Source: Nitrososphaerota archaeon (lineage in GTDB: Archaea; Thermoproteota; Nitrososphaeria; Nitrososphaerales; UBA57). From it: DNA of 32,000 nt. The stretch lies in assembly GCA_013378385.1 (NCBI GenBank), contig JACAFS010000001.1, positions 11,501 through 43,500 on the forward strand. The letters run 5' to 3'. The notes under the pieces are model-generated. The model did not search any database. It was not told the DNA's origin and was given only the letters and a program-made list of their open reading frames with translations. The translations under genes and the position numbers were made by a program. Positions 1-27,057 of the stretch are shown here, in pieces (the stretch's first letter is position 1; each line of letters opens with the position of its first letter).

Positions 1-1
1 C

Positions 2-334
2 CGTTCTAGTCAACATGGAATTGATCCAGATATCGTAGCACTGTGGAAAGACGCTGATGTAATCGAACGTCATTTTACTATACTTGATTCTTCACAAACA
101 AAAGACGGCCCTGTTTCTGTTAATCCTGAACAATTGAAAAATATTGTTGACTATTCAAAGTATAACCATGACGAATTGTTTAAACTCGTAGAAAATATAC
201 CTGACTATGATAAGATGTTGGGTTCAAAAACTCATTCTTTAAGTGAAGAAGAATTACTTAATCGAGATTATTATCGTGGGCGTTTTGCTTCTAAAATTAA
301 TGGAAAAACTATATACAATTGGGAAGAAAGATAA
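2..334 (+). CDS. 3' end of a CDS entering from the left window edge; hypothetical protein, function not recognised
   Basis: The frame of the 134..334 track ORF stays open with no stop back to nt 2 (RSSQHGIDPDIVALWKDADVIERHFTILDSSQTKDGPVSVNPEQ, then LKNIVDY...). The track start at 134 is a TTG, so this is probably the C-terminus of a longer protein. TAA at 332..334 lies 3 nt before the next ATG. Confidence 0.5.
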   Translation, partial: RSSQHGIDPDIVALWKDADVIERHFTILDSSQTKDGPVSVNPEQLKNIVDYSKYNHDELFKLVENIPDYDKMLGSKTHSLSEEELLNRDYYRGRFASKINGKTIYNWEER

Positions 335-337
335 TTC

Positions 338-2302
338 ATGGTTGATAAGCGCATTCTTGGTATTATTCCTGCTCGAGGAGGGTCAAAAACCATTCCTAGA
401 AAAAATATTAAAAATATCTTGAATCGTCCTCTTATATCTTATACAATTGTCGAAGCATTAAAATCAAAAACTCTGTCTAATCTTATTGTATCTTCAGAAG
501 ACGACGAAATTATTCGTATCTCTAAATCTTATGGCGCATCTGTTCCATTTATTCGTCCTGATTCATTGGCACAAGATGATTCATTAGCTATTGACGTTCT
601 TACTCATGCAATACTGGAACTCGAGAAAAAAGAAAATATTACTTATGATGCAGTAGTAATGCTACAACCTACCACTCCCTTACGTACCGCAGACGATATT
701 GATTATTGCATAACTAAATTGTTCGAATCTGATTATGATTCTGTTATTAGTGTTGTCGATGTTGGTGCCATACATCCTCATCGAATGAAAAAAATTGTTA
801 ACGATGAATTAGTAGATTATGCAGATGAAACTGTAGAAAATATGCCAAGACAATCTCTTCCTTCTGTGTATATAAGAAACGGAGCAATTTATGCTACTAA
901 ACGTGATATTCTCATAAATTCAAAATCACTCAAAGGAACTAAGAGTCATGCATATATTATGCCTCCTGAACGTTCACTAAATATCGATGAAAATCTTGAT
1001 CTCAGATTCACTGAACTACTAATGAAAGACTTTGATTGGTCACATATTAAAGAAATTAATTCTATTTCTGTACCTTGGAAATCTTGGTATGGTAATGAAT
1101 CATTAAATCTGACTTTTCCTGAATCTTGGAATATTAATATCTCTCAAATGAACGACGCATCAGCAATCTCTGACGAAGATATCTCGTCTTCAATTTCCAA
1201 TCCGATTAATTCAGAAAAATTATCTGTTCTTGCTAAACAAAAAAAATCTGTCTGTATTGCAGTTGATGATTTAACTAAACCTACTCAAGCCTTCAGAATT
1301 ATCCCTTTTATTTTAGACGAACTTCATCAGTCTGGCTTATCTGATGAAAATATCTATTTCATTATCAGTACAGGAACTCATAGATCTCTAACTCACGATG
1401 AATTGTGTAAGAAACTAGGAACAAAAATCGTTTCTAAATATAAAATATATTGCCATAGCGCTTATCAAAACAATAAATATCTAGGAGAAACATCTGCTGG
1501 CACTCCTGTATACATAGATAATTTATACCTTCAAGCAGATCTTAAAATTGGAATTGGGACTTTAATGCCACATCCATATGCTGGTTTTAGCGGTGGTGGA
1601 AAAATAGTATTACCTGGTCTTGCAGGCATCGAATCTATTGACGTAAATCATAAACCTGTCAATAAATCTCTTCAAGGTAAAATTGGACAAGTTGAAAACA
1701 ATAGCAGAAGAGCTGACATAGAAGAGGCAGCAAATATGGCTGGGTTGGATTTCATTGTTAACACTATTTCTAATTCTCTTGGCGATACTGCTTCTATATA
1801 TTCAGGAAATCCTGTCGATGTATTCTCCACTGCCTCAAAGAAAGCTATTGAAGTTTATTCCACAAAGGTTCCGTACAACATAGACATTGGAGTTTTCAAT
1901 GCTTTTCCTCGCGACACATGGTTCTTACTTGCATTAAATTCACTCAATGTATGGGGTTCTCGAGATTCAGATAAAGAAATTGTCAGAAAAGGCGGTACAA
2001 TTGTCGTAATCACATCTGCATCTGAAGGAATTGGCGAACATGGATTAGTAGGTAAAGGAATGATTCACCATATTCGTAGAGATAAACATGGAACATTTGG
2101 CGGTCCACTTCAAGGTCGAAATCTTATATTCTATTGTCCTACAATTAATCAAAATTATATCTACGATCATTATTCAGAGGAAGTTAAAATTTTCAATAAC
2201 TGGGATTTACTCATTCGTGAATTACAAAAACAGCATGGAAATGACACTGACGCAGTAGTATTTCCTAATAGTTCTCTACAAATTGATTCAAATCTGGTTT
2301 AA
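338..2302 (+). CDS. Two-domain fusion protein: N-terminal NeuA/acylneuraminate-type cytidylyltransferase (CMP-sugar-acid synthetase family) plus a C-terminal complete LarA-like (DUF2088) nickel-pincer-cofactor racemase/epimerase domain
   Basis: Residues 1-235 carry ILGIIPARGGSKTIPRKNI, MLQPTTPLR and RQSLPSVYIRNGAIYA, the CMP-NeuAc/Pse/Leg synthetase motifs. Residues ~243-654 align end to end with lactate racemase LarA: NPINSEKL, DDLTKP (LarA DHTRP), STGTHR, MPHPYAGFSGGGKIVLPG, DVNH. ATG at 338, TAA at 2300..2302, and no stop or frame change between the domains. Confidence 0.85.
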   Translation: MVDKRILGIIPARGGSKTIPRKNIKNILNRPLISYTIVEALKSKTLSNLIVSSEDDEIIRISKSYGASVPFIRPDSLAQDDSLAIDVLTHAILELEKKENITYDAVVMLQPTTPLRTADDIDYCITKLFESDYDSVISVVDVGAIHPHRMKKIVNDELVDYADETVENMPRQSLPSVYIRNGAIYATKRDILINSKSLKGTKSHAYIMPPERSLNIDENLDLRFTELLMKDFDWSHIKEINSISVPWKSWYGNESLNLTFPESWNINISQMNDASAISDEDISSSISNPINSEKLSVLAKQKKSVCIAVDDLTKPTQAFRIIPFILDELHQSGLSDENIYFIISTGTHRSLTHDELCKKLGTKIVSKYKIYCHSAYQNNKYLGETSAGTPVYIDNLYLQADLKIGIGTLMPHPYAGFSGGGKIVLPGLAGIESIDVNHKPVNKSLQGKIGQVENNSRRADIEEAANMAGLDFIVNTISNSLGDTASIYSGNPVDVFSTASKKAIEVYSTKVPYNIDIGVFNAFPRDTWFLLALNSLNVWGSRDSDKEIVRKGGTIVVITSASEGIGEHGLVGKGMIHHIRRDKHGTFGGPLQGRNLIFYCPTINQNYIYDHYSEEVKIFNNWDLLIRELQKQHGNDTDAVVFPNSSLQIDSNLV

Positions 2303-3417
2303 CTAATTTGTATCTGCCCTAAATTTTCCTTAATCTTTCTCATAAATGCATCCCAACTAAATTCCTCCACTGCTCTGTTTCTCGCTGACATGCCCATTTT
2401 CATTCTCTTTTGATTATTTTCTAGCAGATCAAATATCTTATTCTCCCATTGATCTAAATCATCTTGTAACAAGTATCCCGTTATATCGTTAATTATAGTT
2501 TCTTTTGGCCCGCCTGTATTGAATGCAATTACCGGTTTTCCACATGCCATTGCTTCAATTGGCGCAATTCCGAAGTGTTCTTCTTTGGGCGTATATAAAA
2601 ATACACTACAATTCTTATATGAGTTCACTAATTCTGAATCTGTTACATCTGTATGAATCTCTACATTATCGATTAAATCTAATTCTTTAATTTTCTTATT
2701 TAATTCATCTAAATGCCATTCAAATCCTGGTTGTTTTACTCCGATAATGATTAATTTTATTTTGTTATTTCTTCTCTTCATCTTTTTAATTAATTCTATT
2801 GAGAATGTAAGATTCTTATTTGGAACAATTCTATTTACTGTCAGAATATATTTATTATCTGTTTCATTTAGTGTGAATTTATTTATATCAACTCCTGGAA
2901 AGATAATTGTACTATTTCTGTTAAATTTCTCATGTATTGCACTTTTTGTAAAATCAGAATTGCATAATATTGAATTTGTTTCTTTGAATCCTTTATTCTC
3001 TTCTCGATCTATTGGAAAATGTAATAATCTTCTGATTAAATCACTTTTTTTAACTAATAATTGTTCTGGATGATGACAATATATCATTGATGGTTTGTAT
3101 TTGTCTGCCAGATAGTAATTCGAACTAAACACAAATAAATCAGGTTTAAATTTATCAATTCCAGCTTTCATCATCTCCTTACTTTCTCGGTATGCAGTTA
3201 TTGCTCTAAATCTTCCAAAATAATCTAGTTTTCCATTACTAACTATGACATTTTCTTTTCTAAAATCTTCAAAAGCCTTTTCTTCATCGTAAATAGCAGT
3301 AAAATAAGCAACTTCATGACCTAGTTTCTTTAATGAATCTCCCATTCCTAGCACTAATCTTTGCGCACCAGTCTGCATAGATATATCATAATGTATTATT
3401 GCTATTTTCATAATCAT
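2299..3417 (-). CDS. Glycosyltransferase, GT4 family (GT-B fold)
   Basis: C-terminal EX7E-type motif PKEEHFGIAPIEAMACGKPVIAFNTGGPKETI and PGVDINKF. 372 aa, a typical GT4 length. 4-nt overlap with the upstream gene, and its stop overlaps the stop of the convergent 338..2302 gene. Confidence 0.85.
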   Translation of the reverse strand: MIMKIAIIHYDISMQTGAQRLVLGMGDSLKKLGHEVAYFTAIYDEEKAFEDFRKENVIVSNGKLDYFGRFRAITAYRESKEMMKAGIDKFKPDLFVFSSNYYLADKYKPSMIYCHHPEQLLVKKSDLIRRLLHFPIDREENKGFKETNSILCNSDFTKSAIHEKFNRNSTIIFPGVDINKFTLNETDNKYILTVNRIVPNKNLTFSIELIKKMKRRNNKIKLIIIGVKQPGFEWHLDELNKKIKELDLIDNVEIHTDVTDSELVNSYKNCSVFLYTPKEEHFGIAPIEAMACGKPVIAFNTGGPKETIINDITGYLLQDDLDQWENKIFDLLENNQKRMKMGMSARNRAVEEFSWDAFMRKIKENLGQIQIS

Positions 3418-4316
3418 TCTACTTGTTTTCTATATATGTTTAATAGTTTCTCAATTACTTTCTTCCTGTCATGATTATCAATTATGAATTGCCTATTCTC
3501 TTTTGATTCCTTTTTTCTTTCAATTTCATCTAACAATTCAATTACTCGCTCATTTACATTTTCTTTATGTCTGTAATCTATAGTTACCAGACCACAGGCC
3601 ATGGCTTCTAAACATGTTTTACTGTATGACGATACTCCTTTCGTAAATATTCTATCAATATATATATCATATTCCTTCAAATTTTCATGCAATTCTAGAT
3701 ATGAAAATGGTCTTCTGTCATGTATGTCTACTTTAATGCCATTCTTTTCCATAAGTTCAATTAAATACTTTGGCACTCTTTCATACCATGAATTAAATCC
3801 AATTGCTTTTAATTGAGCATTTTGTTTTACCTTCGGACAAAATCTAGTTGTATCTATTGGATTAGGTAAATACTCTGCATCTTGTCTAATTGTTTTTGCT
3901 AATTTCAACATTTCTGGCGTTGATACAATCACTGAATTCGCATATTTCAAATTTCCTTCAATAATTTTACTCCATCTTGTTAAGTCTTTACTATTTTTTT
4001 TAAACTCTTCATCATACAATCCAAATAAATCTGTTCCATGACAATGCAATACATTAATTTCTTTCTTAATTAATCGTACAAAAAATGCATCTTGTAATGC
4101 ATAATTCACGTGTATTATTCCTTTCGCTTTAATCGCATTTACAAAAGGATTTATGATTTTCCCATACACTGAGTATAGTGCATTCGTATTTACATTTGGA
4201 CCTGCATAATTTCTCGGTAAATATTTAACATCCATATTTACCTCTCTGAGTCCATTTGCTAATTCATAACCTACCCAAGCTGCATCATTCAGAATTGTTA
4301 CTTGATTGTTGTTCAA
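3414..4316 (-). CDS. Glycosyltransferase-like protein (divergent, short GT4-like)
   Basis: LPNPIDTTRF (GT4 NGVD..F-like) and SKTCLEAMACGLVTI (LEAMA.G motif). Translationally coupled to the downstream GT4 by a 4-nt overlap. Confidence 0.6.
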   Translation of the reverse strand: MNNNQVTILNDAAWVGYELANGLREVNMDVKYLPRNYAGPNVNTNALYSVYGKIINPFVNAIKAKGIIHVNYALQDAFFVRLIKKEINVLHCHGTDLFGLYDEEFKKNSKDLTRWSKIIEGNLKYANSVIVSTPEMLKLAKTIRQDAEYLPNPIDTTRFCPKVKQNAQLKAIGFNSWYERVPKYLIELMEKNGIKVDIHDRRPFSYLELHENLKEYDIYIDRIFTKGVSSYSKTCLEAMACGLVTIDYRHKENVNERVIELLDEIERKKESKENRQFIIDNHDRKKVIEKLLNIYRKQVE

Positions 4317-4368
4317 TATAGATTATTTACAGATATTCTTTATAACATCTACCAATATTGCTGTTTGT

Positions 4369-5343
4369 TTATTCTAATAATTTTTTAAACCATGAAATTG
4401 TTATGTCTAAACCTTTATCGATACTATATGTTGGTTTCCATTTTAACAATTTCTCTGTTTTACTACAGTCAGCTTCTAATCTTTCTAAATCTGCCGCCCT
4501 TTCTGATTCATAAACTAGTTCAGACGAAGACCCTGATATGTCCCTAATCTTCTTTGCAAGATCTAATATGCTTGTTTGAATACCTGTTCCTATATTGAAT
4601 ACTTCTCCTTGTGTTTTTTCCCTTTCTTTCATTACTCTTACATATGCTTCTACTGCGTCTTTTACATACATCAAATCTCTAGTTTGTTTCCCATTTCCAT
4701 GAATCTTGATATTCTCATTTTTTATCGCTCTAGTTGCAAATTCTGGCACTACTGCTGCATATCCTCTATATGAATTACTCTGATTTTCACCATACGTATT
4801 GAAATTTCTAATTACTGAAACTGGATATTTATACCATTCATGTAATACCATGCATTGTTTTTCTGCAGCCAATTTTGTTGCCGCATAAAAACTTCTAGGA
4901 CGACAAGGATGATCCGTATCCATTGGAGTATATACAGGATTGCCATATACTTCTGGCGAAGATGCATAAATTAGAAATGGTTTACTTTTAGTTTTTAATA
5001 ATTCTTGACATAGACTAAACGTTCCTTTTTCATTTGATTCAAAATATTCCATTGGCTTCTGCATTGATTCTGGAATTGATACTAATGCGGCCAGATGAAT
5101 TATCGTGTCAATTCCTGCTTCGTCAATTTTTTCCGATTTTAAATCTCTGTAGTCCATCTCCCAATTTACAAACCTCTCATTAAACTTCTCTTTGTCTTCA
5201 ATTATATCAAACGGATCTACTGGAAAATCTTCTAATCTATGTAGATTGTCTACTCCATATATTTCTGCATCGGTTTCCTTTAATAATAAATCAATTAAAT
5301 GCGAACCATAAAAACCTGAAGAACCTGTAACTAATATTTTCAT
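4369..5343 (-). CDS. NAD-dependent nucleotide-sugar epimerase/dehydratase (extended SDR)
   Basis: ILVTGSSGFYGSHL (TGxxGxxG Rossmann motif), SSPEVYG, YAATKLAAE (YxxxK catalytic motif), GNGKQTRDLMYVKD. Substrate cannot be assigned from sequence alone. Confidence 0.85.
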   Translation of the reverse strand: MKILVTGSSGFYGSHLIDLLLKETDAEIYGVDNLHRLEDFPVDPFDIIEDKEKFNERFVNWEMDYRDLKSEKIDEAGIDTIIHLAALVSIPESMQKPMEYFESNEKGTFSLCQELLKTKSKPFLIYASSPEVYGNPVYTPMDTDHPCRPRSFYAATKLAAEKQCMVLHEWYKYPVSVIRNFNTYGENQSNSYRGYAAVVPEFATRAIKNENIKIHGNGKQTRDLMYVKDAVEAYVRVMKEREKTQGEVFNIGTGIQTSILDLAKKIRDISGSSSELVYESERAADLERLEADCSKTEKLLKWKPTYSIDKGLDITISWFKKLLE

Positions 5344-5385
5344 TTTATTACTCTACTTCTTCATACATAATAAATTCTTTTCTAA

Positions 5386-6084
5386 TTAAATTATCAATCT
5401 GTGACATTCATATGCTTCAGCATATTTTACACCTATCTCGGTACCTCTAAGCTCTGCTATATTCTCAATTACTCTTGGTGTTCTGGGATGGTTCTTACTT
5501 CTTACTTGAGACGAATACAAAGATAATGCCTTGATTTTCTTTTTTAATTCTTTTGATATATCAACATAAAAATTAGGATGAAATCTTTTTCTAGTCCAAT
5601 TTGTTTCAGGTTGTTCATACGATAATACCATATTTGTAATATCTTTCTCATTATTTCTAACAGGCCTACATGCTGTAAAACTAGCTTTGGCAACAGCAAC
5701 ATGATCCTGATTTGTTGAACCTATAAAAGGAATTGCCACTATGTCTGGTTTTACTGTTGATAATGAAACCTCACCTTTCTCAATAGTGTTTATCAAATTC
5801 TTTTGTGGAACTTTGTCGAGTTTAAGGTGATATTCGTCACCTGCCCATGCTAAATCAAATGAATCTACCTTCAGATATCTCATTACTTTATTCATTTCTA
5901 GTATTCTTTTCTCGGAGTTACTGGTTCCTCCATATTGTTTGATATTTCCCACTGTAAAACATAAAACATGAACTTCTCCACCCCCTGCTTTAACCTTTGA
6001 AATTAAACCTCCACATCCAAGGACTTCATCATCAGGATGAGGGGCAATAACTAATAATTTCTTGTTCTTGTAATTTATTGTCAT
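5386..6084 (-). CDS. PIG-L/LmbE family N-acetyl-sugar deacetylase
   Basis: LLVIAPHPDDEVLGCGGLI is the PIG-L signature (AHPDDE), followed by a downstream NQDH motif. 4-nt overlap with the upstream methyltransferase gene. Confidence 0.85.
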   Translation of the reverse strand: MTINYKNKKLLVIAPHPDDEVLGCGGLISKVKAGGGEVHVLCFTVGNIKQYGGTSNSEKRILEMNKVMRYLKVDSFDLAWAGDEYHLKLDKVPQKNLINTIEKGEVSLSTVKPDIVAIPFIGSTNQDHVAVAKASFTACRPVRNNEKDITNMVLSYEQPETNWTRKRFHPNFYVDISKELKKKIKALSLYSSQVRSKNHPRTPRVIENIAELRGTEIGVKYAEAYECHRLII

Positions 6085-6839
6085 TTCCTAGCTGATATTC
6101 CCATTACTACTTTTTTTGTTATAAACTTATTTTCTTTTACGAATATGTCTTCGATTACTTTCTCAAATTTATTCTGTTCTTCCTTTTCAAATAACGTATA
6201 AGATTTCCAGTATCTTAATAATTCATCTTTACTAGGAAATGTGACAGGATTCTCAAAAATATCTATTTTTACTTCTCCAAATAATGTTTCAAAATATGGC
6301 AAAGCTTTTGACTCCATAAAATTATTGTGCATATTATATTCTTCAGGAAGCTTTTCAAAAGTTTCATGTATGTCGGTTAATTCTTTGTTATTTCTCTTGA
6401 TTGGCCCACAAACAAAACATTTACCTCCTTCTTTTAACTTATCATATATGTCATTAATTGTTTTTTTATAATTTTTTGAATAATATAAACCAAAACAACA
6501 CAAAATTAAGTCGAATTGAGCATTTTTGAATTCACTATCTATATATTCCATACTTCCATTTTTTAAAAATACTTTCTCTCTTTCTACATTTGATTCAATT
6601 TCATTTAGAAGATCTTTTGATATGTCTAATCCCGTGACTGATCCATTTTCATTAATTGCTTCACTTATTGGAATTAGTTGTTTTCCATTTCCACATGCTA
6701 TGTCTAATACTTGGTCATCTTCTTTAATCTCTAATTTCGGAATTATCCAGTCATTTATTTCGAATTTCGCATAATTTGCATGTGCAGCTAGCCTATTATT
6801 CAATGCATTGCTGGAATTTTGCGCTCTTACCAATTTCAA
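6081..6839 (-). CDS. Class I SAM-dependent methyltransferase
   Basis: Motif I VLDIACGNGKQ, followed by GLDIS and DLILCCFGLYY (post-I/II motifs). Start is a TTG and therefore uncertain. Confidence 0.8.
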   Translation of the reverse strand: MKLVRAQNSSNALNNRLAAHANYAKFEINDWIIPKLEIKEDDQVLDIACGNGKQLIPISEAINENGSVTGLDISKDLLNEIESNVEREKVFLKNGSMEYIDSEFKNAQFDLILCCFGLYYSKNYKKTINDIYDKLKEGGKCFVCGPIKRNNKELTDIHETFEKLPEEYNMHNNFMESKALPYFETLFGEVKIDIFENPVTFPSKDELLRYWKSYTLFEKEEQNKFEKVIEDIFVKENKFITKKVVMGISARK

Positions 6840-8467: not shown

Positions 8468-9052
8468 TTATTCCTTTCTTTTTTGTATTTTCTTATTTAC
8501 TTTTTTTTCCTCTTTTTTACTAGCTCCGATATAAAATACCAGTAATCCAATTATGACTAAAATATTTGCAATACCACTGTAACTTGATTCAAGTCTTATT
8601 GATATTGAATTCTCTACAGTCTCCTCTGTGTTATGATTCCAAACAACAACTGTTACTTTTTCCATTCCTGGATCTAACATTCTTTTGAATGTTCCTGCCA
8701 ATTCTAGTTTCTCAACTATTGGTTCCCAATCATCACAAATTTCACCTCCCTCTCTTGATCCTCCACATCTCTTGAAAATATCGTAATTCTCCTCATCAAA
8801 TACATACAAATCTATGACATCTCCCCTTGTCTCAATTCCATCTCTAACTTCTGGCCCTTGGTTGTTATTTGTTAATTCAAGTCGATAATTGGCCATGGGC
8901 AGAGGAAGTGTTTGTACATCTGCATAGTATGTTATGAAAGAATTAACTGGGATTACGTCAAATTCTGATAATACTGTTACTGAGCTCAAAGAAAACACAT
9001 ATGCCCCGAATATTGCTATAACCACGCCAATTACTAAGATCTGTTTATTCAT
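8468..9052 (-). CDS. Hypothetical membrane protein: N- and C-terminal TM helices flanking a probable extracytoplasmic domain, with a Lys-rich tail
   Basis: Hydrophobic segments ILVIGVVIAIFGAYVFSL and ANILVIIGLLVFYIGA, then tail SKKEEKKVNKKIQKRKE. Ends 10 nt upstream of lysS on the same strand. No family recognised. Confidence 0.55.
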   Translation of the reverse strand: MNKQILVIGVVIAIFGAYVFSLSSVTVLSEFDVIPVNSFITYYADVQTLPLPMANYRLELTNNNQGPEVRDGIETRGDVIDLYVFDEENYDIFKRCGGSREGGEICDDWEPIVEKLELAGTFKRMLDPGMEKVTVVVWNHNTEETVENSISIRLESSYSGIANILVIIGLLVFYIGASKKEEKKVNKKIQKRKE

Positions 9053-11278: not shown

Positions 11279-11983
11279 TCATAAATAATCTTCAATTTTT
11301 GGCTGTAAATCTATCCATGTTTTCCAAGATTTTCTTGTAAAATCCGGCATTTTTTTATTCTTCATAACCCATTCTCGTAAAAATATTCTAGTAATTGGAT
11401 CTGAAGGATAACCGCTACCTATAATTCCATGAATTCTTTCTAATTTTAGAATCTCATTGTCACGATTGAATTTTGCAATTATTCAAGCCGCTGCAACAAT
11501 TATATATCTCTCATCTGCTTTATGCCTAGAATATATCTTCATTCTCGTATCAATTCGATTAATTATTCTCTGTTTAAATCTCTCTGGATTGACATCACAT
11601 GAATCTACATAAATTGAATTTGATTTCAATTTATTCATCATCTTTGCAATTGAATTTGCTTCTAATTCATTTAGTCCAATTATCTTATTTCCCGGGTAAT
11701 AGTTCTTCTTTTTTGCAAATTCTTTTCTCAATCTTACTGCTTTATCAATTTTCTTTTCGGATAACCTAGTTATTGAAACATGTTGTGATTCCTCCATGAT
11801 AATTTTTGAAAGAATTTCTCTATTCTTTGGCGTGACTTTTTTTGAATCTTTTACACCAAGTTTTGAAAATTTTCTAATTATTTTTTTATCTGCGGTAACA
11901 CACGCTATTACTAACGGACCAATAATAGATCCCCTTCCTGCCTCGTCTACTCCTGATACCAGTTTATTATTCAAATTCTTCAA
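11279..11983 (-). pseudogene. rnhB: Ribonuclease HII interrupted by a single in-frame TGA (11483..11485) at the conserved Ser of the AAASIIAK motif. Either a recent nonsense mutation, a read error or a readthrough site.
   Basis: Upstream part (the track ORF 11483..11983) reads GVDEAGRGSIIGPLVIA ... RHKADERYIIVAAA, then TGA. The same frame continues without further stops for 67 codons (IIAKFNRDNEILKLERIHGIIGSGYPSDPITRIFLREW...EDYL) to TGA at 11279..11281. GSGYPSD and the IAK motif are canonical RNase HII. Confidence 0.8.
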
Positions 11984-12509
11984 TTATACTTTTGTATATA
12001 CTATCAATCACTTCAACTTTGTGTTTATCATTTAAATCATGAAGTTCTAAATTTGCTGATTTTTTTATTTCTTGAATAATTGGATGATTAAATTTTGTTT
12101 GTATTGCACATAGTATCTTCTTATCTTCATTTAATAATGACTGAAGCACATCACAAAATTTATTACTAAAAAGCTCCATTGGCCCTATCATATCTATTAT
12201 TATTAATTCTGCTTTTGTTGATGATTGATGTAATTCATCAATGATCAAGTTGTCAATGTTGTCTATATTTATCCTAAATTTCTGTAATCTTGGACCTGTT
12301 TTTTTATCTACATCTGCTAATTCAAAAGTAATACCTGTTGAAATATTCATAATTTCTATTCCAGTCCTCTTTCCGTATTTTCGTATATCTCTTGTCAATA
12401 TGCCTCCCATAGAAATATTATCCGATGACAATCTATAGTGTAATGTATTGATTACTTTGGTCTTTCCTGTACCAGTTCTTCCTGTTACTCCCCATACCTT
12501 CGAATTCAT
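11967..12509 (-). CDS. THEP1-type nucleoside-triphosphatase (NTPase_1 family P-loop protein)
   Basis: Walker A GVTGRTGTGKTKV, and Walker B plus family motif LIIIDMIGPMELFS (compare DEIGKMELFS). 180 aa. 17-nt overlap with the rnhB start. Confidence 0.75.
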   Translation of the reverse strand: MNSKVWGVTGRTGTGKTKVINTLHYRLSSDNISMGGILTRDIRKYGKRTGIEIMNISTGITFELADVDKKTGPRLQKFRINIDNIDNLIIDELHQSSTKAELIIIDMIGPMELFSNKFCDVLQSLLNEDKKILCAIQTKFNHPIIQEIKKSANLELHDLNDKHKVEVIDSIYKSIIEEFE

Positions 12510-12598: not shown

Positions 12599-13507
12599 TT
12601 GTCAGAATTAGAATCTACGAACGTCGACGAAATTACCACTAAAATCAAGGATTTACTGGATTCCAGGAAAAATCTTGTGACTCAACTCAAATCCCTGAAT
12701 AAAAAAAGACTCGATATGCGTGATGAAATTAATACTATTACTTCTCAATTGGGAGAAGATCAGGCAGTTTTAGAACCACTATATGGCGAGGTGGGCACTT
12801 ATCGTAAAGAAAGACAAGGATTACTAAATGAAAAGAAACAAATTTGGACACAAATTAATGATACTAATGATGGCATTAAACAGAATGATTCTTTAAGTAA
12901 AGACCAAAACTCAAAACCCGATCGTAAATTTAATAAAAAAGAAAATTCCAAAAATATATCAAAACGAATAAAAGAAATTGAATGGAAACTTCAAACTGCA
13001 CAATTAACACGACAAGAAGAAAAACAGCTTATTGACAGTATTAAAACACTACAAAAAAAATATAACGTTTGGAAAAAATCTGCCACCGCTCGTAAAGAAT
13101 TATCTACATTATTTAAAAAAATTAAAACAATAGGAACTAATATAGACACAATTGACAAATCTCGAGAAAATATAAAAACATCTCTTGATGAAAAAAAGTC
13201 AGTCTTTGATACAAAGTTTAAACAACGTGAACAGCTATTCAATGAAATGAACGGTTTTAACGATGATATTAGAGAGTTAGAAACTACACTCAAAGCCAAT
13301 TCTAAAGAATTACAGTTATTGAAAACTCAACGAACTGAAATTTTCAAATCAATTAAATCTGTTAGCAAGTCTGAAATTCTTAAGAAAAAGAAAGTTATTC
13401 TTGAGAAAGAAAAATCCAAGGCTAAAGAAAAACTTGAATCTGGACAGTCCCTTTCATTTGATGAATTAAGATTAGCTTACGATGATGATGATGAGTACCT
13501 CTCGTAA
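12599..13507 (+). CDS. Lys/Glu-rich coiled-coil protein (archaeal uncharacterised coiled-coil family, COG1340-like)
   Basis: Heptad-like K/E/L/Q-rich sequence throughout and an acidic C-terminus DDDDEYLS. TTG start is uncertain. The family call rests on composition and architecture only. Confidence 0.55.
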   Translation: MSELESTNVDEITTKIKDLLDSRKNLVTQLKSLNKKRLDMRDEINTITSQLGEDQAVLEPLYGEVGTYRKERQGLLNEKKQIWTQINDTNDGIKQNDSLSKDQNSKPDRKFNKKENSKNISKRIKEIEWKLQTAQLTRQEEKQLIDSIKTLQKKYNVWKKSATARKELSTLFKKIKTIGTNIDTIDKSRENIKTSLDEKKSVFDTKFKQREQLFNEMNGFNDDIRELETTLKANSKELQLLKTQRTEIFKSIKSVSKSEILKKKKVILEKEKSKAKEKLESGQSLSFDELRLAYDDDDEYLS

Positions 13508-17625: not shown

Positions 17626-18429
17626 TCATTTATGATAATCCATTTCATTCAATATATTATTTCCTAATATTTCCGTGCACGCTGTAACGTATGATGCCCC
17701 TTCTTTGGATAATATATTGAAATCATTTTGTTCATTGAGGAATTCTATGAATATTCCTGAACACTTCCCAATATACATTGCAGGTAGACAATCAAACGTT
17801 CTCAACTGTTTTGAAGGTGCAATAAAAGCATCTATCTTACCTGCTGCCACGAATACGTTCTCTATTATTGCAGAACCTAGTATTCTCTGCGCCTTAGTTT
17901 TTTCAAATATTTTCTGCATATGTTCATAAGATTTCCTTGCATTTCCTGATCTTATATTCAAATCTACAGCAATTACTGCTTCATTTAGTTTTTCTATGTT
18001 GTTTGGTTTTATTGTTGAATCATTGACTGTTGCTTTTTGCAGCTCACCCAAATACAAATCTCCTTGAATTATATCTATTACTCCTGATGCAATTATATCT
18101 GAAAATTTTTCTCCTTTCGCAATTGCAATAGTTGAACTAAAAAATGGAATCTGCCTTACCGAATTTAAACTTCCATCTAACGGATCAATTAATACGAATA
18201 TGTTGTTATTTCCTTCAATTATTCCTGTTTCTTCTGATACAATTGTCGCTCCTGGTATGTCCTTCTTAATTTCTTTTAGTATAGTTTTTTCTGCCAATAC
18301 ATCAATTTCATATTGCATATCCCCAAATGCATTTTTATCTAATTCACTATGATTTCCTTTAAAGTATCTATCTTTAATCGTATTTTGTGCTTTTATTAGT
18401 GTCTTTTCTATAATTTCCGAATAATTCAA
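17626..18429 (-). CDS. suhB: Inositol monophosphatase / fructose-1,6-bisphosphatase family protein
   Basis: IVSEETG, VLIDPLDGSLN (DPxDG[ST] metal motif), FDCLPAMYI (WD..A-like). Divergent from the inositol-1-phosphate synthase gene. TTG start. Confidence 0.85.
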   Translation of the reverse strand: MNYSEIIEKTLIKAQNTIKDRYFKGNHSELDKNAFGDMQYEIDVLAEKTILKEIKKDIPGATIVSEETGIIEGNNNIFVLIDPLDGSLNSVRQIPFFSSTIAIAKGEKFSDIIASGVIDIIQGDLYLGELQKATVNDSTIKPNNIEKLNEAVIAVDLNIRSGNARKSYEHMQKIFEKTKAQRILGSAIIENVFVAAGKIDAFIAPSKQLRTFDCLPAMYIGKCSGIFIEFLNEQNDFNILSKEGASYVTACTEILGNNILNEMDYHK

Positions 18430-18468
18430 TTATATATTCATTGTTCAAAGAATCTTAAAAGCTTAATA

Positions 18469-19557
18469 TTGTATACTATTTTAAATTCATTTGTGCCAAA
18501 GGTAAAAGTAGCTCTTGCCGGTATAGGTAATTGCGCATCTGCATTAATTCAAGGTTTGGAATATTATCGGCAGAATCCTGAAGAAACTGTAGGATTAGTT
18601 GATTATTCTATTGGTGGAATAGAACCTAACGATATAGAATTTGTTGCTGCATTTGATGTTAACGATAAAAAAGTAGGTTTTGATCTTTCCAACGCTATTT
18701 TTGCACATCCAAATAATACTGCAAAAATTATAGACGTACCTAATCTTGGCGTTGAAGTAACTCGTGCTCCTGTTAAGGACGGTATAGGAAAATATCTAAA
18801 AGATGTAGTTGATGTACAAGATCCAAATGGCGCTGACGTTGTTGATATAATTAAAAGTTCCGGTGCAGATATATTGATTAATTATTTGCCTGTGGGAAGT
18901 ACTGACGCTACTAAATATTATGCTCAATGCGCTTTAGACTCTAATGTCGGTTTCATAAATTCAATGCCTGTTTTTATTGCCTCTAATCCTGAATGGCAAG
19001 CTAAATTTATTGATAAAGGACTTCCAATTGCCGGAGACGATGTCATGAGTCAATTGGGTGCCACTGTTGTTCATAAAAGTCTTATTAAATTATTTGTTGA
19101 ACGTGGAGTAAAAGTCGACGAAACCTATCAACTGAATATAGGCGGAGATGCTGATTTTCTTAATATGCTGGAAGAATCGCGATTAGTTGATAAGCGTGAA
19201 AGTAAAACCTCTGCCGTTCGTGCAATGTCTCCTTATCCTATTCCTACTCGAATTGGCCCTAGTGATTATGTAGATTTTCTTAAAAACGATAAGATCTGCT
19301 ATGTCTATATTAAAGGTCATTATTTCGGAAATATTCCTGTTACATTAGATTTGAAACTTCATGTCATGGATGCTTATAATAGTGGAGGGGTCATTGTGGA
19401 TGCCATCCGTGCTACTAAGGTTGCTTTAGATCGAAAAATCTCTGGACCATTGAACAGTATATCCGCTTATTGTTTTAAACATCCTCCTGTTCAAATGCCC
19501 TATGAAGAGGCAAAAACTGAATTTCTTGAATTCATTGCTGGTAATCGAGAACGTTAA
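18469..19557 (+). CDS. myo-Inositol-1-phosphate synthase (archaeal type)
   Basis: VALAGIGNCASALIQGLEYY, LPIAGDD, LNIGGDADF, SKTSAV. The in-frame GVG at 18493 is a GTG that would give a more typical N-terminus (PKVKVALAGIGNCAS) than the TTG at 18469. Confidence 0.9.
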   Translation: MYTILNSFVPKVKVALAGIGNCASALIQGLEYYRQNPEETVGLVDYSIGGIEPNDIEFVAAFDVNDKKVGFDLSNAIFAHPNNTAKIIDVPNLGVEVTRAPVKDGIGKYLKDVVDVQDPNGADVVDIIKSSGADILINYLPVGSTDATKYYAQCALDSNVGFINSMPVFIASNPEWQAKFIDKGLPIAGDDVMSQLGATVVHKSLIKLFVERGVKVDETYQLNIGGDADFLNMLEESRLVDKRESKTSAVRAMSPYPIPTRIGPSDYVDFLKNDKICYVYIKGHYFGNIPVTLDLKLHVMDAYNSGGVIVDAIRATKVALDRKISGPLNSISAYCFKHPPVQMPYEEAKTEFLEFIAGNRER

Positions 19558-22964: not shown

Positions 22965-23137
22965 TGGAGCAAAAATGTCAAGATTGTGATGCAACAATGC
23001 AGATTCTAGACGACGTTGTAATAGGAGAGATTATAAGTTGTCCTGATTGCGGTAACGAATTTGAAGTTAAGAAAATCGATTCAAATGCTGTTACATTATC
23101 GCCTGCAGAATCAGTTGGAGAAGATTGGGGAGAATAA
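22964..23137 (+). CDS. lysW: Amino-group carrier protein LysW/ArgW (57 aa, absent from the supplied ORF track)
   Basis: My translation is MEQKCQDCDATMQILDDVVIGEIISCPDCGNEFEVKKIDSNAVTLSPAESVGEDWGE. It has a CxxC...CxxC zinc ribbon and the diagnostic C-terminal EDWGE. The ATG shares its A with the argH TAA (TAATG). Stop falls 1 nt before the lysX ATG. Confidence 0.9.
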   Translation: MEQKCQDCDATMQILDDVVIGEIISCPDCGNEFEVKKIDSNAVTLSPAESVGEDWGE

Positions 23138-23138
23138 T

Positions 23139-24005
23139 ATGACCAATCGTATCAGTATTATCTACGATCGCGTGCGTTGGGAAGAAAAAGAAATTTTCAA
23201 TGCATTTGAGGAAAGAAATATCCCATTTAGCAAACATGATGCAAAAGCACTCGTATTGCGTAGTAATGACTCTGACGAATCAATTCAATCTTCGTTTGGC
23301 ACTTCTATAATTCAAAGATGCATTAGTCATTATCGTGGTATGCTTATTGCCCATTATTTAGAATCAAAAAACTGTTTAGTGGTTAATAGTTCTAACACAA
23401 GTAGAATATGCGGTAATAAATTCCTATCTACATTGAAATTTGAGGAATCTGGCATAAAAACTCCTCTTACTTTATTCAGTTTTTCCGATAAATCTGCCGA
23501 AGATTCTGTAGAAGAATTGGGTTATCCATCTGTCTTGAAGCCTATTGTAGGAAGTTGGGGAAGAGGCGTTGTAAAATTAAATGATAAAGATTCTGCTAAG
23601 GCTCTGATTGAAATGAGATATAATGACGATGGATTATTCTCGAAAATTTTTTATGTCCAACAACATATCAGTCGACCTCCAAGAGATATTAGGACGGTTG
23701 TTGTAGGAAATGAAGTTGTTGGTGCTGAATATCGTTATTCTTCTAATGATGATTGGAGGACTAACTTCTCACTTGGAGCAAAAATTGAGAATTGCCCTAT
23801 TACGAAGGAGTTGGAAGAAATTGTTCTTAAGGCATCAGACTCAGTTGGTGGCGGAATCCTTGGCGTTGATCTAATGGAGGGCGAAGACGGATTCTTAGTT
23901 CATGAAATTAATAATAATGTTGAGTTTAAAGGCGTTTCAAAATTCACCAAAGATAATATAGCATACAAAATTGTAGACTATATTGATCATATTTCAAAGA
24001 GGTAA
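23139..24005 (+). CDS. lysX: RimK/ATP-grasp ligase LysX/ArgX (attaches glutamate or 2-aminoadipate to LysW)
   Basis: ISIIYDRVRWEEKE, VLKPIVGSWGRGV, GVDLME...LVHEINNNVEF (ATP-grasp). I place the start at ATG 23139. The track extension to TTG 23061 would overlap lysW. Confidence 0.9.
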   Translation: MTNRISIIYDRVRWEEKEIFNAFEERNIPFSKHDAKALVLRSNDSDESIQSSFGTSIIQRCISHYRGMLIAHYLESKNCLVVNSSNTSRICGNKFLSTLKFEESGIKTPLTLFSFSDKSAEDSVEELGYPSVLKPIVGSWGRGVVKLNDKDSAKALIEMRYNDDGLFSKIFYVQQHISRPPRDIRTVVVGNEVVGAEYRYSSNDDWRTNFSLGAKIENCPITKELEEIVLKASDSVGGGILGVDLMEGEDGFLVHEINNNVEFKGVSKFTKDNIAYKIVDYIDHISKR

Positions 24006-24011
24006 TTTGTA

Positions 24012-25064
24012 ATGAAGGTTGGAGTAATTGGTGCATCGGGTTTTGTCGGAGGAGAACTATTGAGATTAATCATTAATCATCCTGAAGTTGAACTTTCTTT
24101 TGCAACTTCTAGACAGTACGATGGCCAATTTTTATATAAAATTCATCCTAATTTGAAGGGATTTACAGATGTCAAATTCTCATTATTTGATTCATCGAAG
24201 GTTGCTGATCAATGTGACCTTCTTTTTACTGCCGTTCCACATGGTAGTTCATATGAATTCATGAATGAACTTGTTAATTCTGGCGTAAAAATTGTTGACC
24301 TTAGTGCTGATTATAGACTTTCGAATCCAGATATGTATGATAAATGGTATGGTTTTACACATCCTCTACCTGACTTATTGAATTCATTTACGTTCGGTTT
24401 ACCTGAACTTCATAGGGATTCGATAAAATCAAGTAAGTTTACATCTACTCCTGGATGCACTGCTTTAACTTCGATTCTTGCGTTGGCGCCTTTGATTCAA
24501 AACAAAATAATAGATTCTAATAATATTATTATTGACTCAAAAGTTGGTTCATCTGGTGCTGGTGTAAAACCTACTATTGGTTCTCATCATGCTAATAGGT
24601 ATGGTGTTATCCGTCCATTCAAACCTTACGCACATAGACATACTGCTGAAATCGATCAAGAACTTTCGAATTTATCTGAAAACTCTGTAAATGTTTCACT
24701 GTCTGTTCATTCAGTAAATCTTGTTCGTGGTATATTATGTACTTCATACGCCTCTATTGATTCTGATATTACCGAAGTTGAAGTATGGAAAGCTTATAGG
24801 AAATTCTATTCTGACTCGCCTTTTATTAGATTTATTGGAGATAAGAAAGGTCTGTACAGATATCCTGATCCTAAACTACTTATTGGCTCCAATTTTTGTG
24901 ATATTGGATTTGCTTATGACAAATCTGCATCTAGACTTGTTGTTATGTCTTCATCAGATAATCTGATTAAGGGAGCTGCAGGAACTGCTATTCAAAATAT
25001 GAATCTTATGTCTGGTTTTGATGAAACTATAGGTTTATGGACTCCTGGAATACATCCAATGTGA
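24012..25064 (+). CDS. lysY: LysY/ArgC: [LysW]-aminoadipyl/glutamyl-phosphate reductase (N-acetyl-gamma-glutamyl-phosphate reductase family)
   Basis: KVGVIGASGFVGGELLRL (NAD(P)-binding), STPGCTALTSILALAPL (active-site Cys), SSSDNLIKGAAG. Confidence 0.9.
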   Translation: MKVGVIGASGFVGGELLRLIINHPEVELSFATSRQYDGQFLYKIHPNLKGFTDVKFSLFDSSKVADQCDLLFTAVPHGSSYEFMNELVNSGVKIVDLSADYRLSNPDMYDKWYGFTHPLPDLLNSFTFGLPELHRDSIKSSKFTSTPGCTALTSILALAPLIQNKIIDSNNIIIDSKVGSSGAGVKPTIGSHHANRYGVIRPFKPYAHRHTAEIDQELSNLSENSVNVSLSVHSVNLVRGILCTSYASIDSDITEVEVWKAYRKFYSDSPFIRFIGDKKGLYRYPDPKLLIGSNFCDIGFAYDKSASRLVVMSSSDNLIKGAAGTAIQNMNLMSGFDETIGLWTPGIHPM

Positions 25065-25069
25065 TTTCC

Positions 25070-25879
25070 ATGGTTACAATAGTAAAAATCGGTGGAAGTC
25101 TACATAGTAAAGGATTGACAAAAAATTTATTTGAGGATATTAAAAATTTCTCTAAAACTGAGTCATTGGTTGTCGTTCATGGAGGTGGAAACACAGTAAC
25201 TGAAATTGCAGAAAAACTAGGTAAGAAACAAGAATTCATTGTTTCTCCATCTGGTGTGAAAAGCAGATATACTGATAAAGAAACTGCATCAATCTTCATG
25301 ATGGTTATGTGTGGAAAAATTAATAAAGAAATTGTAGTATCATTACAATCTCTAGGTGTTAATGCAGTAGGATTAGGTGGCATCGATGGTAATATATTGA
25401 GTGCAATTCGTAAGAAAAGGCTCTTGATAATAGACGAAAGAAAAAGAAAACGTGCAATTGAAGGTGGATTTACGGGTAAAATAAAAAACGTTAATACTGA
25501 ATTGATTAATGACTTGATTAAATCAGGATACCTTCCAGTAATATCTCCAGTTGCTCTAGGCGATGAATTTGAAATTTTGAATGTTAATGGCGATCGTGCC
25601 GCATCTAATATTGCAACTCATCTAAATGCCGACCGTGTTATCTTCCTAACGGATGTTGATGGAATATCGTTGAATGACAAGCTTGTTACCAATCTAACTC
25701 TAGCAGAGTCTAAAGAAATTCTTCCAGACCTTGGATTTGGTATGGAACAAAAATTAATTTCTTGTATAGAATCCTTAGATCATGGTGTTAAAGAAGGAAT
25801 CATTGCTTCAGGGTTAGTTGACAACCCCATATCTAACGCTGTAAAACATTCCAATTGTACGGTGATTAATAATGAATGA
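25070..25879 (+). CDS. lysZ: LysZ/ArgB: [LysW]-aminoadipate/glutamate kinase (acetylglutamate kinase family)
   Basis: MVTIVKIGGS, VVVHGGGN, NVNGDRAA. Start is taken as ATG 25070. In-frame GTG 25061 (GTGA overlap with the lysY stop) is also possible, and track TTG 25037 is unlikely. Confidence 0.88.
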   Translation: MVTIVKIGGSLHSKGLTKNLFEDIKNFSKTESLVVVHGGGNTVTEIAEKLGKKQEFIVSPSGVKSRYTDKETASIFMMVMCGKINKEIVVSLQSLGVNAVGLGGIDGNILSAIRKKRLLIIDERKRKRAIEGGFTGKIKNVNTELINDLIKSGYLPVISPVALGDEFEILNVNGDRAASNIATHLNADRVIFLTDVDGISLNDKLVTNLTLAESKEILPDLGFGMEQKLISCIESLDHGVKEGIIASGLVDNPISNAVKHSNCTVINNE

Positions 25880-27056
25880 TGAAGAATTAATTAATTCAGA
25901 GGATAAATATCTGGCTCCTGTTTACCAAAAATTTCAAATTATCCTTGATAAAGGAAGTGGATGTTACGTATGGGACTCTTCAGGTAAAAAATATCTCGAC
26001 CTGATGGGGGGTTATGGCGTTTCATTATTAGGTCATTCAAATAAAACCATTGTTCAAGCCATAACTAATCAAGCAAATAAATTGACTAGTTGCCATGGTT
26101 CATTTTATAATGCGGAAAGGGCAAATGCTGTATTAAACATAAATAAAATTACACCAAAGAATCTTGATAATATATATTTATGTAATAGTGGGGCTGAAGC
26201 AGTTGAAGCTGCATTAAAATTATGTAAGAAACACTCGAAAAATAAAATTATTTCTATGTCTGGTTCATATCATGGTAAAACAATAGGTTCTTTGTCTCTA
26301 ACCTGGAATCCTAAATACAAAAAGTCTTTTCAACCTCTTCTTGACGATGTTGATTTCATCCCATTTGGGGATGCTGATTCATTGTCTAAAATTGATGATA
26401 ATACTGCTGCTGTCTTTTTAGAAGTTATTCAGGGTGAAAATGGCGTAAAATTTGCTTCAGTTGAGTATTTTAATAAATTACAAGAGCAATGTGATAAACA
26501 TAATGTACTGTTAGTCGTTGATGAGATTCAAACAGGTCTTGGAAGAACTGGTAAAATGTGGGCTCATGAGCACTATGATTTGAAACCAGACATTTTATGT
26601 ATTGGAAAAGGATTGGCCGGGGGAATGCCTGTCGGAGCAATGATTTCAAGAAGCGACATGACAAATTTCTCTCTTGGCGAACACACTACTACATTTGGTG
26701 GTAATCCTTTGACCTCTTCTGCAATCAATGCATCTATTGAGTATATCTTACAAGAAAATATAATCGATAATGCAGAAAAAACTGGTCAAATATTTCTTAA
26801 TGGGCTTGAAGAACTTAAATCAAAATATGATTCTATTCGTGATGTTCGTGGACTTGGATTGATGATTGCTATAGAATCAAAATTCCCAATCAAAGATATA
26901 TTATTTGATGGATTGAATAACGGCCTGATTATGCTATATTCTGGTAGAACTATATTGAGATTTTTACCTTCGTTAACATTGAATGAATCCCAAGTTGCTT
27001 CATCTCTACAAATTCTAGATAAGTTATTTCAAAATTCTCAGAAAAAGGTAAAATGA
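25872..27056 (+). CDS. lysJ: LysJ/ArgD: class III PLP aminotransferase (acetylornithine aminotransferase family)
   Basis: NSGAEAVEAALK, LLVVDEIQTGLGRTGKMWAHEHY, CIGKGLAGGMPVGA (PLP Lys), TFGGNPL. 8-nt overlap with lysZ. Confidence 0.9.
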   Translation: MNDEELINSEDKYLAPVYQKFQIILDKGSGCYVWDSSGKKYLDLMGGYGVSLLGHSNKTIVQAITNQANKLTSCHGSFYNAERANAVLNINKITPKNLDNIYLCNSGAEAVEAALKLCKKHSKNKIISMSGSYHGKTIGSLSLTWNPKYKKSFQPLLDDVDFIPFGDADSLSKIDDNTAAVFLEVIQGENGVKFASVEYFNKLQEQCDKHNVLLVVDEIQTGLGRTGKMWAHEHYDLKPDILCIGKGLAGGMPVGAMISRSDMTNFSLGEHTTTFGGNPLTSSAINASIEYILQENIIDNAEKTGQIFLNGLEELKSKYDSIRDVRGLGLMIAIESKFPIKDILFDGLNNGLIMLYSGRTILRFLPSLTLNESQVASSLQILDKLFQNSQKKVK

Positions 27057-27057
27057 T

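Follow-up and report, generated by a model that had tools for sequence, protein, structure and literature searches.

A LarA-type domain fused to a predicted CMP-ulosonate synthetase in marine Nitrososphaerota: a candidate nickel-pincer epimerase in a sialic-acid-like pathway

What does a domain of the lactate racemase (LarA) type do when it is joined in one polypeptide to an enzyme that activates sugar acids with cytidine monophosphate (CMP)? The question is raised by a gene in a 32,000-nucleotide stretch of a Nitrososphaerota archaeon genome (GenBank assembly GCA_013378385.1, contig JACAFS010000001.1, positions 11,501 to 43,500), referred to here as the window. At positions 338..2302 of the forward strand, one open reading frame with an ATG start and no internal stop encodes 654 amino acids that combine a predicted CMP-ulosonate synthetase with a LarA-type domain. 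New here is the recruitment, by fusion or adjacency, of a LarA-superfamily domain into CMP-ulosonic-acid biosynthesis in archaea and bacteria, with a chemistry that we can propose from conserved residues and gene context. We read the protein as a bifunctional enzyme of a sialic-acid-like (3-deoxy-2-ulosonic acid) pathway whose LarA domain would act as an epimerase, a reading to which we give about even chances.

The two halves were recognized separately by profile and by structure. The cytidylyltransferase domain occupies residues 1-235 (338..1042), the LarA-type domain, with both LarA subdomains, residues 243-654 (1064..2299), and between these two structural matches lies a short linker, residues 236-242 (1043..1063), all on the forward strand. 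Residues 8-185 match the Pfam family CTP_transf_3 (PF02348; E 8e-20, 72 bits against a gathering cut-off of 22.6) and residues 251-441 match Lar_N (PF09861, COG3875; E 1.5e-54, 184.8 bits against 23.3). Sequence searches of the PDB aligned residues 3-230 with synthetases of CMP-N-acetylneuraminic acid (CMP-Neu5Ac), CMP-pseudaminic acid (CMP-Pse) and CMP-Kdn (E 1e-29 to 1e-15), including the CMP-Neu5Ac synthetase of Vibrio cholerae (6ifd, E 2e-29). Residues from about 250 to 570 matched the malate racemase Mar2 (6d6z, E 1.6e-43), the broad-spectrum LarA of Isosphaera pallida (9eid, E 3e-41) and LarA of Lactiplantibacillus plantarum (5huq, E 5e-32).

An AlphaFold2 model of the fusion, built from 73 homologues, has a mean predicted local distance difference test score (pLDDT) of 93.8 and a predicted template modelling score (pTM) of 0.88. 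Zero segments fall under pLDDT 50, and the blocks around the linker (231-250) average 89-94. Foldseek superimposed the model on LarA structures 9eia, 8ezf and 5huq over about 430-440 columns, with target-normalised template modelling (TM) scores of 0.83-0.85, and on 6ifd over about 228 columns (TM 0.90). Because the fold match spans the full length, the LarA half is complete, including the C-terminal 85 or so residues that the sequence search left unaligned. The first-pass annotation of this DNA had described a NeuA-type enzyme fused to a complete LarA in one frame and had proposed separate searches of the halves. The architecture stands, with both Pfam profiles above their gathering scores, and the residue and nucleotide coordinates given there proved exact (DDLTKP, for example, is residues 310-315).

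Could the single frame be an artefact of assembly or a frameshift that joins two genes? Split versions of the pair do exist in other organisms, which would lend such an explanation some credit. However, the identical 654-residue protein is present on four independently assembled contigs from four samples (ENA, Logan, JGI), and copies at 93-96% identity occur in six marine Nitrososphaerales/Nitrosopumilales metagenome-assembled genomes (MAGs), among them JAKZTE01, CAZKFJ01, DAHJ01/UBA223, JABUBF01 and JACAFT01. The gene turns up frequently in metagenomes from the ocean: 215 sequences belong to its cluster at 90% identity, one of which, of this length, is recorded on 87 contigs. The survey of related genomes suggested in the first-pass annotation yielded 27 full-length fused clusters at 45-94% identity, from archaea and bacteria, that keep one frame. 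Frameshift and misassembly are ruled out by these observations, the chance of an artefact being negligible, and the fusion is real.

Assignment of the halves to named enzyme families is less direct. The best NCBIfam model for the LarA half is malate racemase LarAH6, one of the LarA homologue (LarAH) groups, at 238.8 bits against a cut-off of 500; the lactate racemase model gives 198.8 bits against 460, and the 'putative hexonate epimerase' model 21 bits. The fusion reaches less than half of every LarA-family equivalog cut-off in NCBIfam; it is a member of the LarA superfamily outside all of the characterised racemase families. The N-terminal domain scores 148.5 bits with the PseF model, under the cut-off of 205.7, and at most 45 bits with the KdsB models. 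Its predicted identity as a CMP-nonulosonate synthetase fits, with no assignment to a particular sugar (PseF, KdsB) at equivalog level. The sources name the protein 'DUF2088 domain-containing protein', 'hypothetical protein' or 'N-acylneuraminate cytidylyltransferase', and automatic concatenation at JGI gives 'nickel-dependent lactate racemase/CMP-N-acetylneuraminic acid synthetase'. The two-domain assignment corrects the first three of these current names.

Alignment with L. plantarum LarA, whose numbering is used for reference, places the residues needed for nickel-pincer nucleotide (NPN) chemistry on the forward strand of the gene. His348 (1379..1381) lies opposite the catalytic His108, His412 (1571..1573, an invariant column) opposite the catalytic His174, Lys422 (1601..1603) opposite the cofactor-tethering Lys184, and His438 (1649..1651) opposite the nickel ligand His200. 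This set is kept in 57 of the 57 closest relatives and, among the matches listed, in 119 of 120 archaeal and bacterial homologues; the sole exception there (P0097) aligns to the N-terminal domain only. Lys314 (1277..1279) takes the place of Arg75, which binds the substrate carboxylate, and the position is Lys or Arg across close relatives, so that the positive charge is kept and the residue differs.

Other substrate-binding positions have changed. In characterised LarAs, Tyr294, Gln295 and Lys298 help to bind the 2-OH and the carboxylate of the substrate (PMC11851776). They correspond to Leu530, Leu531 and Asn534 in three independent pairwise alignments with the gap-free anchor P524-x-D526, within the stretch WFLLALNSLN (residues 528-537; 1919..1948, forward strand) in a helix of the second LarA subdomain. 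The statement in the first-pass annotation that every residue known to matter has a counterpart was too strong, given this replaced triad and the change from Arg75 to Lys314. Its four counterparts of His108, His174, Lys184 and His200 hold, and no orthologue lacking them was seen among the matches listed. The replaced triad is weakly suggestive of a changed mode of substrate binding. A lactate or malate racemase function was rejected on the equivalog scores, the missing triad and the gene context.

In the N-terminal domain, the stretches PARGGSK (11-17), QPTTPLR (110-116), PRQSLP (170-175), NGAIY (181-185) and NIDENLD (215-221) are near-identical in 6ifd, 1eyr and 9ftb. We take these to be the sites for CTP, Mg and the sugar carboxylate. 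A link between this domain and the CTP-dependent step of LarC in cofactor synthesis was considered and dropped, as the domain aligns with sugar-activating NeuA and follows neuB.

The gene that precedes the fusion identifies the likely class of sugar acid. The window opens within the 3' end of neuB (1..334, forward strand), of which the last 110 codons and the stop remain inside the window edge. Translated positions 2-331 are 100% identical to residues 204-313 of a 313-residue NeuB (PF03102) on a longer contig with the same fusion (L001). The TAA stop of neuB lies at 332-334 and the ATG of the fusion 3 nucleotides downstream, a context that the first-pass annotation had missed. The best NCBIfam models for this NeuB are NeuB_NnaB (156.5 bits, cut-off 399.65) and PseI (133.5 bits, cut-off 340.25), and a domain search gave no match to a SAF domain in it. 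On these scores it is a divergent synthase.

Is the association with NeuB general? NeuB is encoded within about 5 kb of the fusion in six of the six fused lineages examined (L001, L005, L017, L014, L018 and L143). The three archaeal lineages (L001, L005, L017) share a TagF-like transferase of the Glyphos_transf type, a nucleoside diphosphate (NDP)-sugar dehydrogenase with an N-terminal CBS pair, an AP_endonuc_2 TIM-barrel protein, NeuB and the fusion; the part of this module upstream of neuB spans 5028..9003 in L001, 3924..8964 in L005 and 4993..9001 in L017. The opposite strand encodes glycosyltransferases of family 4 (GT4), an epimerase of the short-chain dehydrogenase/reductase (SDR) family, a PIG-L deacetylase and a methyltransferase, and in one archaeal lineage the gene for the oligosaccharyltransferase AglB is about 4 kb away. 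The best specific model for the dehydrogenase is UDP-ManNAc dehydrogenase (278.6 bits, under the cut-off of 750), and the only PDB relative of the AP_endonuc_2 protein is the uncharacterised MJ1311. We considered whether the AP_endonuc_2 protein travels with LarAH from catabolic clusters and rejected this, since the two AP_endonuc_2 proteins compared share only a 67-residue match (E 1e-4).

Canonical clusters for Neu5Ac, pseudaminic acid and legionaminic acid also place NeuB next to a cytidylyltransferase. Unlike them, the archaeal loci (L001, L005, L017) lack, within 10 kb, a NeuC-type 2-epimerase and a dehydratase or aminotransferase of the PseB/PseC type. Thus, these archaea probably follow an unusual route to the aldose used by NeuB.

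The neighbouring genes of the more distant fused members look bacterial. In L014 the fusion is found with a protein combining glycosyltransferase family 2 (GT2) and cytidylyltransferase domains, a formyltransferase, a deacetylase, NeuB and a PMT-like protein. L018 encodes two NeuB, one NeuC and two further cytidylyltransferases. L143 has a minimal set, neuB-neuC-(neuA-larA), and its 9-kb contig encodes no cytidylyltransferase besides the fusion. In L143 an asparagine-synthase-like amidotransferase (4096..5883) also starts at the last base of the fusion, and it could amidate a sugar carboxylate. Other fusions involving the cytidylyltransferase were noted. A 482-residue protein (P0097, mentioned above) carries a cytidylyltransferase domain with 50% identity to that of the query, fused to an S-adenosylmethionine (SAM) methyltransferase, and cytidylyltransferase-GT2 fusions of about 460 residues occur in LarAH clusters (L014 12022..13416; L016 3315..4688).

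The two activities are not always joined. At three loci of the same LarA clade (L015, L016 and L020), they are encoded by separate adjacent genes in the order cytidylyltransferase then LarAH, and fused and split forms interleave in one clade of a crude neighbour-joining tree. One apparent stand-alone member of the clade is cut by a contig end. In L016 and L020 an enzyme of the 3-deoxy-D-arabino-heptulosonate 7-phosphate (DAHP) synthase type (342.8 bits against a cut-off of 335) stands in place of NeuB, with an AroE-like dehydrogenase; L016 also encodes a GFO_IDH_MocA oxidoreductase and L020 a KpsC/S-like transferase. The gene set of these two loci points to a heptulosonic acid that is activated with CMP, which would put an enzyme family of the shikimate pathway to an unusual use. 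The DAHP-synthase-type and AroE-like genes lie between cytidylyltransferase genes in capsule-like clusters (L016 5474..8513; L020 6990..9254).

Across most clusters the shared elements are a 3-deoxy-2-ulosonic acid derived from phosphoenolpyruvate (PEP) and its activation with CMP. As NeuB or a DAHP-synthase-type enzyme is encoded nearby, the clade is tied to the CMP activation of PEP-derived 3-deoxy-2-ulosonic acids. P0053, which branches off just outside the clade in the neighbour-joining tree, belongs to a cluster for the catabolism of sugar acids that also encodes an MR_MLE dehydratase, a PfkB kinase, a DHDPS-like aldolase and an ABC transporter. Since this is the nearest outgroup examined, the ancestry of the clade probably lies in sugar-acid handling.

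Based on well-established functions of the families and on the operon structure, NeuB would condense PEP with an aldose to form an ulosonic acid, and the N-terminal domain of the fusion would convert the ulosonic acid to its CMP ester. The LarA domain would carry NPN, which would transiently abstract a hydride and return it, with His348 and His412 as the acid/base pair, as their conservation suggests. Its substrate would be the free ulosonic acid or the labile CMP ester, and the product an epimer. As C2 of a 3-deoxy-2-ulosonic acid bears no hydrogen, canonical racemisation at the alpha carbon cannot apply and another carbon is needed. Because the minimal L143 cluster shows no other alpha-hydroxy acid, we favour a carbinol other than C2 of the ulosonic acid or of its CMP ester. 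Our guess is C4, the carbinol nearest to the carboxylate anchor. A fusion to NeuA could serve to pass on a labile CMP-sugar or to supply the synthetase with the correct epimer, and glycosyltransferases of the cluster would then use the CMP-sugar to build a cell-surface glycan.

The first-pass annotation had predicted that an alpha-hydroxy, aldonic or ulosonic acid is epimerised and then CMP-activated. The ulosonic acid is favoured by neuB 3 nucleotides upstream and by NeuB or DAHP-synthase-type enzymes elsewhere. The alpha-hydroxy acid is disfavoured by the replaced 2-OH/carboxylate triad, and the order of steps was too specific, as action on the CMP-sugar is equally possible. The chemistry of the LarA domain may fall outside known LarA reactions. 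If NPN epimerises a ring or side-chain carbinol (e.g., C4) of a nonulosonic or heptulosonic acid or its CMP ester, forming an epi-sialic-acid-like sugar, these would be the first LarA-family enzymes with a substrate that is not an alpha-hydroxy acid; we put this forward tentatively, as a possibility that is on balance doubtful.

Several observations weigh against an epimerase of ulosonic acids. Known reactions of LarA homologues are limited to racemisation or epimerisation of alpha-hydroxy acids at the alpha carbon (PMC13524815, 2026). The Tyr/Gln/Lys triad is also absent from many uncharacterised LarAH groups, and its loss therefore does not set this clade apart. No ulosonate synthase was found within 10 kb at the split locus L015, and a close stand-alone Nitrososphaerales relative (P0039) lies outside any glycan cluster. 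Genes for NPN synthesis (larB, larC, larE) and a nickel transporter were not found in any of the flanks of about 10 kb read around the fused and split genes.

The LarA domain might instead be a conventional alpha-hydroxy-acid epimerase that acts on another molecule of the pathway, with the NeuA fusion serving only co-regulation or complex formation. Candidate substrates would be a uronic or aldonic precursor (at C5 of a hexuronate from one of two NDP-sugar dehydrogenases of the cluster), an ulosaric diacid (at the omega-1 carbon), or a lactate or glycerate with which the glycan would later be decorated. The substrates of all characterised LarAHs are alpha-hydroxy acids, the outgroup P0053 resembles an aldonate epimerase in a catabolic cluster, the fusion keeps both catalytic histidines and has a cationic residue in place of Arg75, and the archaeal module always has the CBS-NDP-sugar dehydrogenase beside AP_endonuc_2, NeuB and the fusion. 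However, no NDP-sugar dehydrogenase was found in the flanks read of L014, L018, L143, L016 and L020, which have just the synthase and the cytidylyltransferase in common. That the LarA domain is repeatedly fused or adjacent to a cytidylyltransferase in particular argues for consecutive steps on one molecule, and the carboxylate/2-OH triad is gone. We consider such an epimerase unlikely, if a real contender.

NPN could also serve a reaction that does not epimerise, such as redox isomerisation of a 2-keto-4-hydroxy acid (hydride transfer from C4 to C2) or hydride shuttling between substrates. An open-chain ulosonic acid is a 2-keto acid, the species that stands beside reduced NPN in the LarA mechanism, and the residues that position the substrate are changed. 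Hydride-shuttling NPN enzymes of unrelated fold were reported in 2026 and lack precedent in the LarA fold (PMC13524815). Reduction at C2 would destroy the anomeric centre needed by the fused cytidylyltransferase, and both catalytic histidines are kept, as in epimerases that work on two faces. A non-epimerising role is thus improbable.

Is the cofactor available to these organisms? In the metagenome scan for larB, an AT-biased back-translation of the LarB motif AGTSDxPVAEEA gave at least 120 loci, which we ranked by tetranucleotide similarity to the window, on a scale where true relatives reach 0.975. None of the matches listed is a larB locus of ammonia-oxidising archaea (AOA): the best similarity is 0.94, and the LarC-Mdh-LarB order of AOA was not seen. 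The loci at the top of this ranking resemble a larA-B-C-E operon of the lactobacillus type and an archaeal larE-larB-larC arrangement beside hypA/nikR-like genes. At L013, the locus of a bacterial LarA hit, larB, larC and larE were not found; it holds serC/serA and his genes only. Three AT-rich loci have larE-larB followed by an open reading frame for the N-terminal part of LarC, of about 238-241 residues (L034 2594..4948; L050 2756..5056; L070 1866..4132). Their LarC looks split or truncated relative to the forms of about 390-450 residues elsewhere, and they adjoin hypA-like and nikR-like genes.

Annotation tables published for relatives lend indirect support to a supply of the cofactor. The supplements of PMC8397731 list larB and larC in sediment Nitrosopumilales. 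They also list, in the MAG Alpha_AOA_ma1, a cluster of NifS, LarE (COG1606), LarC (COG1641), Mdh and LarB (COG1691), with LarB and LarC in orthologue clusters shared with the sediment clades. This MAG represents a relative rather than the same organism, because its gene order differs from that of the window. It also encodes a stand-alone LarA homologue of 361 residues in a RimI / protease / PyrE / PqqC context (PMC8397731 supplements), which is typical of LarAH group 12.

These observations bear on whether the LarA-like domain could be catalytically silent, with a structural, regulatory or substrate-binding role, or deprived of a cofactor that the cell does not make. The lack of larB, larC and larE in the flanks read speaks for this, as does the inactivity in vitro of LarAH12 from the AOA Nitrososphaera gargensis (PMC7583248). 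It is opposed by the conservation of the His/His/Lys/His set, by the NPN-maturation genes listed for related marine AOA (PMC8397731) and by a fold model that is confident throughout. We regard a silent domain as improbable.

How does the fusion compare with known systems? It shares with L. plantarum LarA, Mar2 and I. pallida LarA the two-domain fold, the catalytic His pair, the tethering Lys, the nickel-ligand His and a cationic residue at the Arg75 position. It differs in identity (23-26% in structural alignments), in its Leu/Leu/Asn triad, in the fused cytidylyltransferase and in its place within a biosynthetic glycan operon with neuB rather than in hydroxy-acid metabolism. The gluconate 2-epimerases GntE1/GntE2 (LarAH19/20) and LarAH of the P0053 type belong to the same family and act on sugar acids. 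However, they act at C2 of aldonic acids in catabolism, whereas the fusion would handle 2-keto-3-deoxy acids in biosynthesis with CMP activation.

LarA homologues with a single His, from Blautia wexlerae and Streptococcus plurextorum (9q3k, 9q3j), have the LarA fold and a non-canonical site, and their genomic context led to a proposal of carbohydrate processing (PMC12611868). They match the fusion at E of about 1e-14 by sequence and at TM 0.64. They lack one catalytic His, form octamers and are encoded beside glycolytic genes, whereas the fusion keeps both histidines. LarAH12 of N. gargensis and the 361-residue 'nickel-dependent lactate racemase' of marine AOA MAGs are also LarA-family proteins of AOA, but they are stand-alone, found with RimI, a Zn-protease, PyrE and PqqC, and have no neuB or cytidylyltransferase link. 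Papers on AOA genomics discuss only the stand-alone LarA of sediment clades, read as a possible lactate racemase.

The N-terminal half resembles NeuA, PseF and CMP-Kdn synthetase (6ifd, 1eyr, 9ftb, 9t4z) in fold (TM 0.84-0.90), in its conserved stretches and in following neuB. It differs from them in the 412-residue LarA domain and in its PseF score below cut-off. To our knowledge, the partner domain in the NeuA fusions described so far is an esterase in E. coli K1 and group B Streptococcus and a phosphatase-like domain in mammals, not a redox or epimerase domain. The first-pass annotation knew of no described example of the fusion, and the LarA-family literature searched likewise links no LarA protein to a cytidylyltransferase or to nonulosonic acids, by fusion or otherwise. 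No study of nonulosonic-acid clusters with DUF2088 surfaced in the literature search. In SDR epimerases such as UDP-galactose 4-epimerase, a tightly bound hydride carrier transiently oxidises a carbinol of the sugar and then delivers the hydride to the opposite face. The proposed LarA chemistry follows the same idea with an unrelated fold and cofactor (nickel-pincer nucleotide rather than NAD), and an SDR of the UDP-galactose 4-epimerase family is encoded separately in the cluster (4369..5343).

The remaining genes of the cluster lie on the reverse strand of the window. A GT4-family glycosyltransferase (2299..3417, Glycos_transf_1, E 1.2e-38) converges on the fusion with a 4-nucleotide overlap and is also present in L001 and L005. 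It is followed by a 300-residue protein without a Pfam family (3414..4316), whose L005 counterpart has a faint Glyco_transf_4 (GT4) signal. The SDR mentioned above, an NAD-dependent sugar epimerase/dehydratase, matches GDP_Man_Dehyd (5e-53) and Epimerase (6e-51). A PIG-L family de-N-acetylase (5386..6084) and a SAM-dependent methyltransferase (6081..6839) were identified by domain search. With neuB, these genes confirm the earlier placement of the fusion inside a glycan cluster.

Elsewhere, the window (about 32% G+C) includes genes for Nop56/58, fibrillarin, class I lysyl-tRNA synthetase, DUF373, a LysX-type Lys/Arg cluster and aEF-2, which mark the DNA as archaeal; together with the marine MAGs that carry the fusion, they place the source among marine Nitrosopumilales. 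At the end of the LysX-type cluster (23061..28338), an M20-family peptidase (27058..28338, forward strand) has an AsnC-type helix-turn-helix at residues 1-48, before Peptidase_M20 and M20_dimer; it is unusual for the last enzyme of a pathway to carry a DNA-binding domain. A gene for myo-inositol-1-phosphate synthase and a divergent gene of the inositol-monophosphatase family (17626..19557) adjoin a NUDIX hydrolase. The RNase HII frame (11483..12509, reverse strand) begins with TTG, encodes 166 residues and shares 17 nucleotides with the NTPase gene upstream. Its Pfam match ends at profile position 141 of 199, and the protein may be truncated or diverged at its C-terminus. Two further open reading frames lack a Pfam family (8468..9052, reverse strand, 194 residues; 12599..13507, forward strand, 302 residues).

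A LarA clade coupled to CMP-ulosonate synthetases and PEP-dependent ulosonate synthases gives a concrete, testable starting point in the search for new nickel-pincer chemistry in the biosynthesis of nucleotide sugars. It bears on the diversity of nonulosonic acids, as the routes to several epimeric sugars are unknown. If the substrate is indeed not an alpha-hydroxy acid, the fusion would provide an enzyme for epimeric ulosonic acids whose biosynthesis is unexplained, and a cell-surface glycan of abundant deep-ocean ammonia-oxidising archaea would be nickel-dependent. Such a requirement would add to the trace-metal needs of marine Thaumarchaeota beyond urease.

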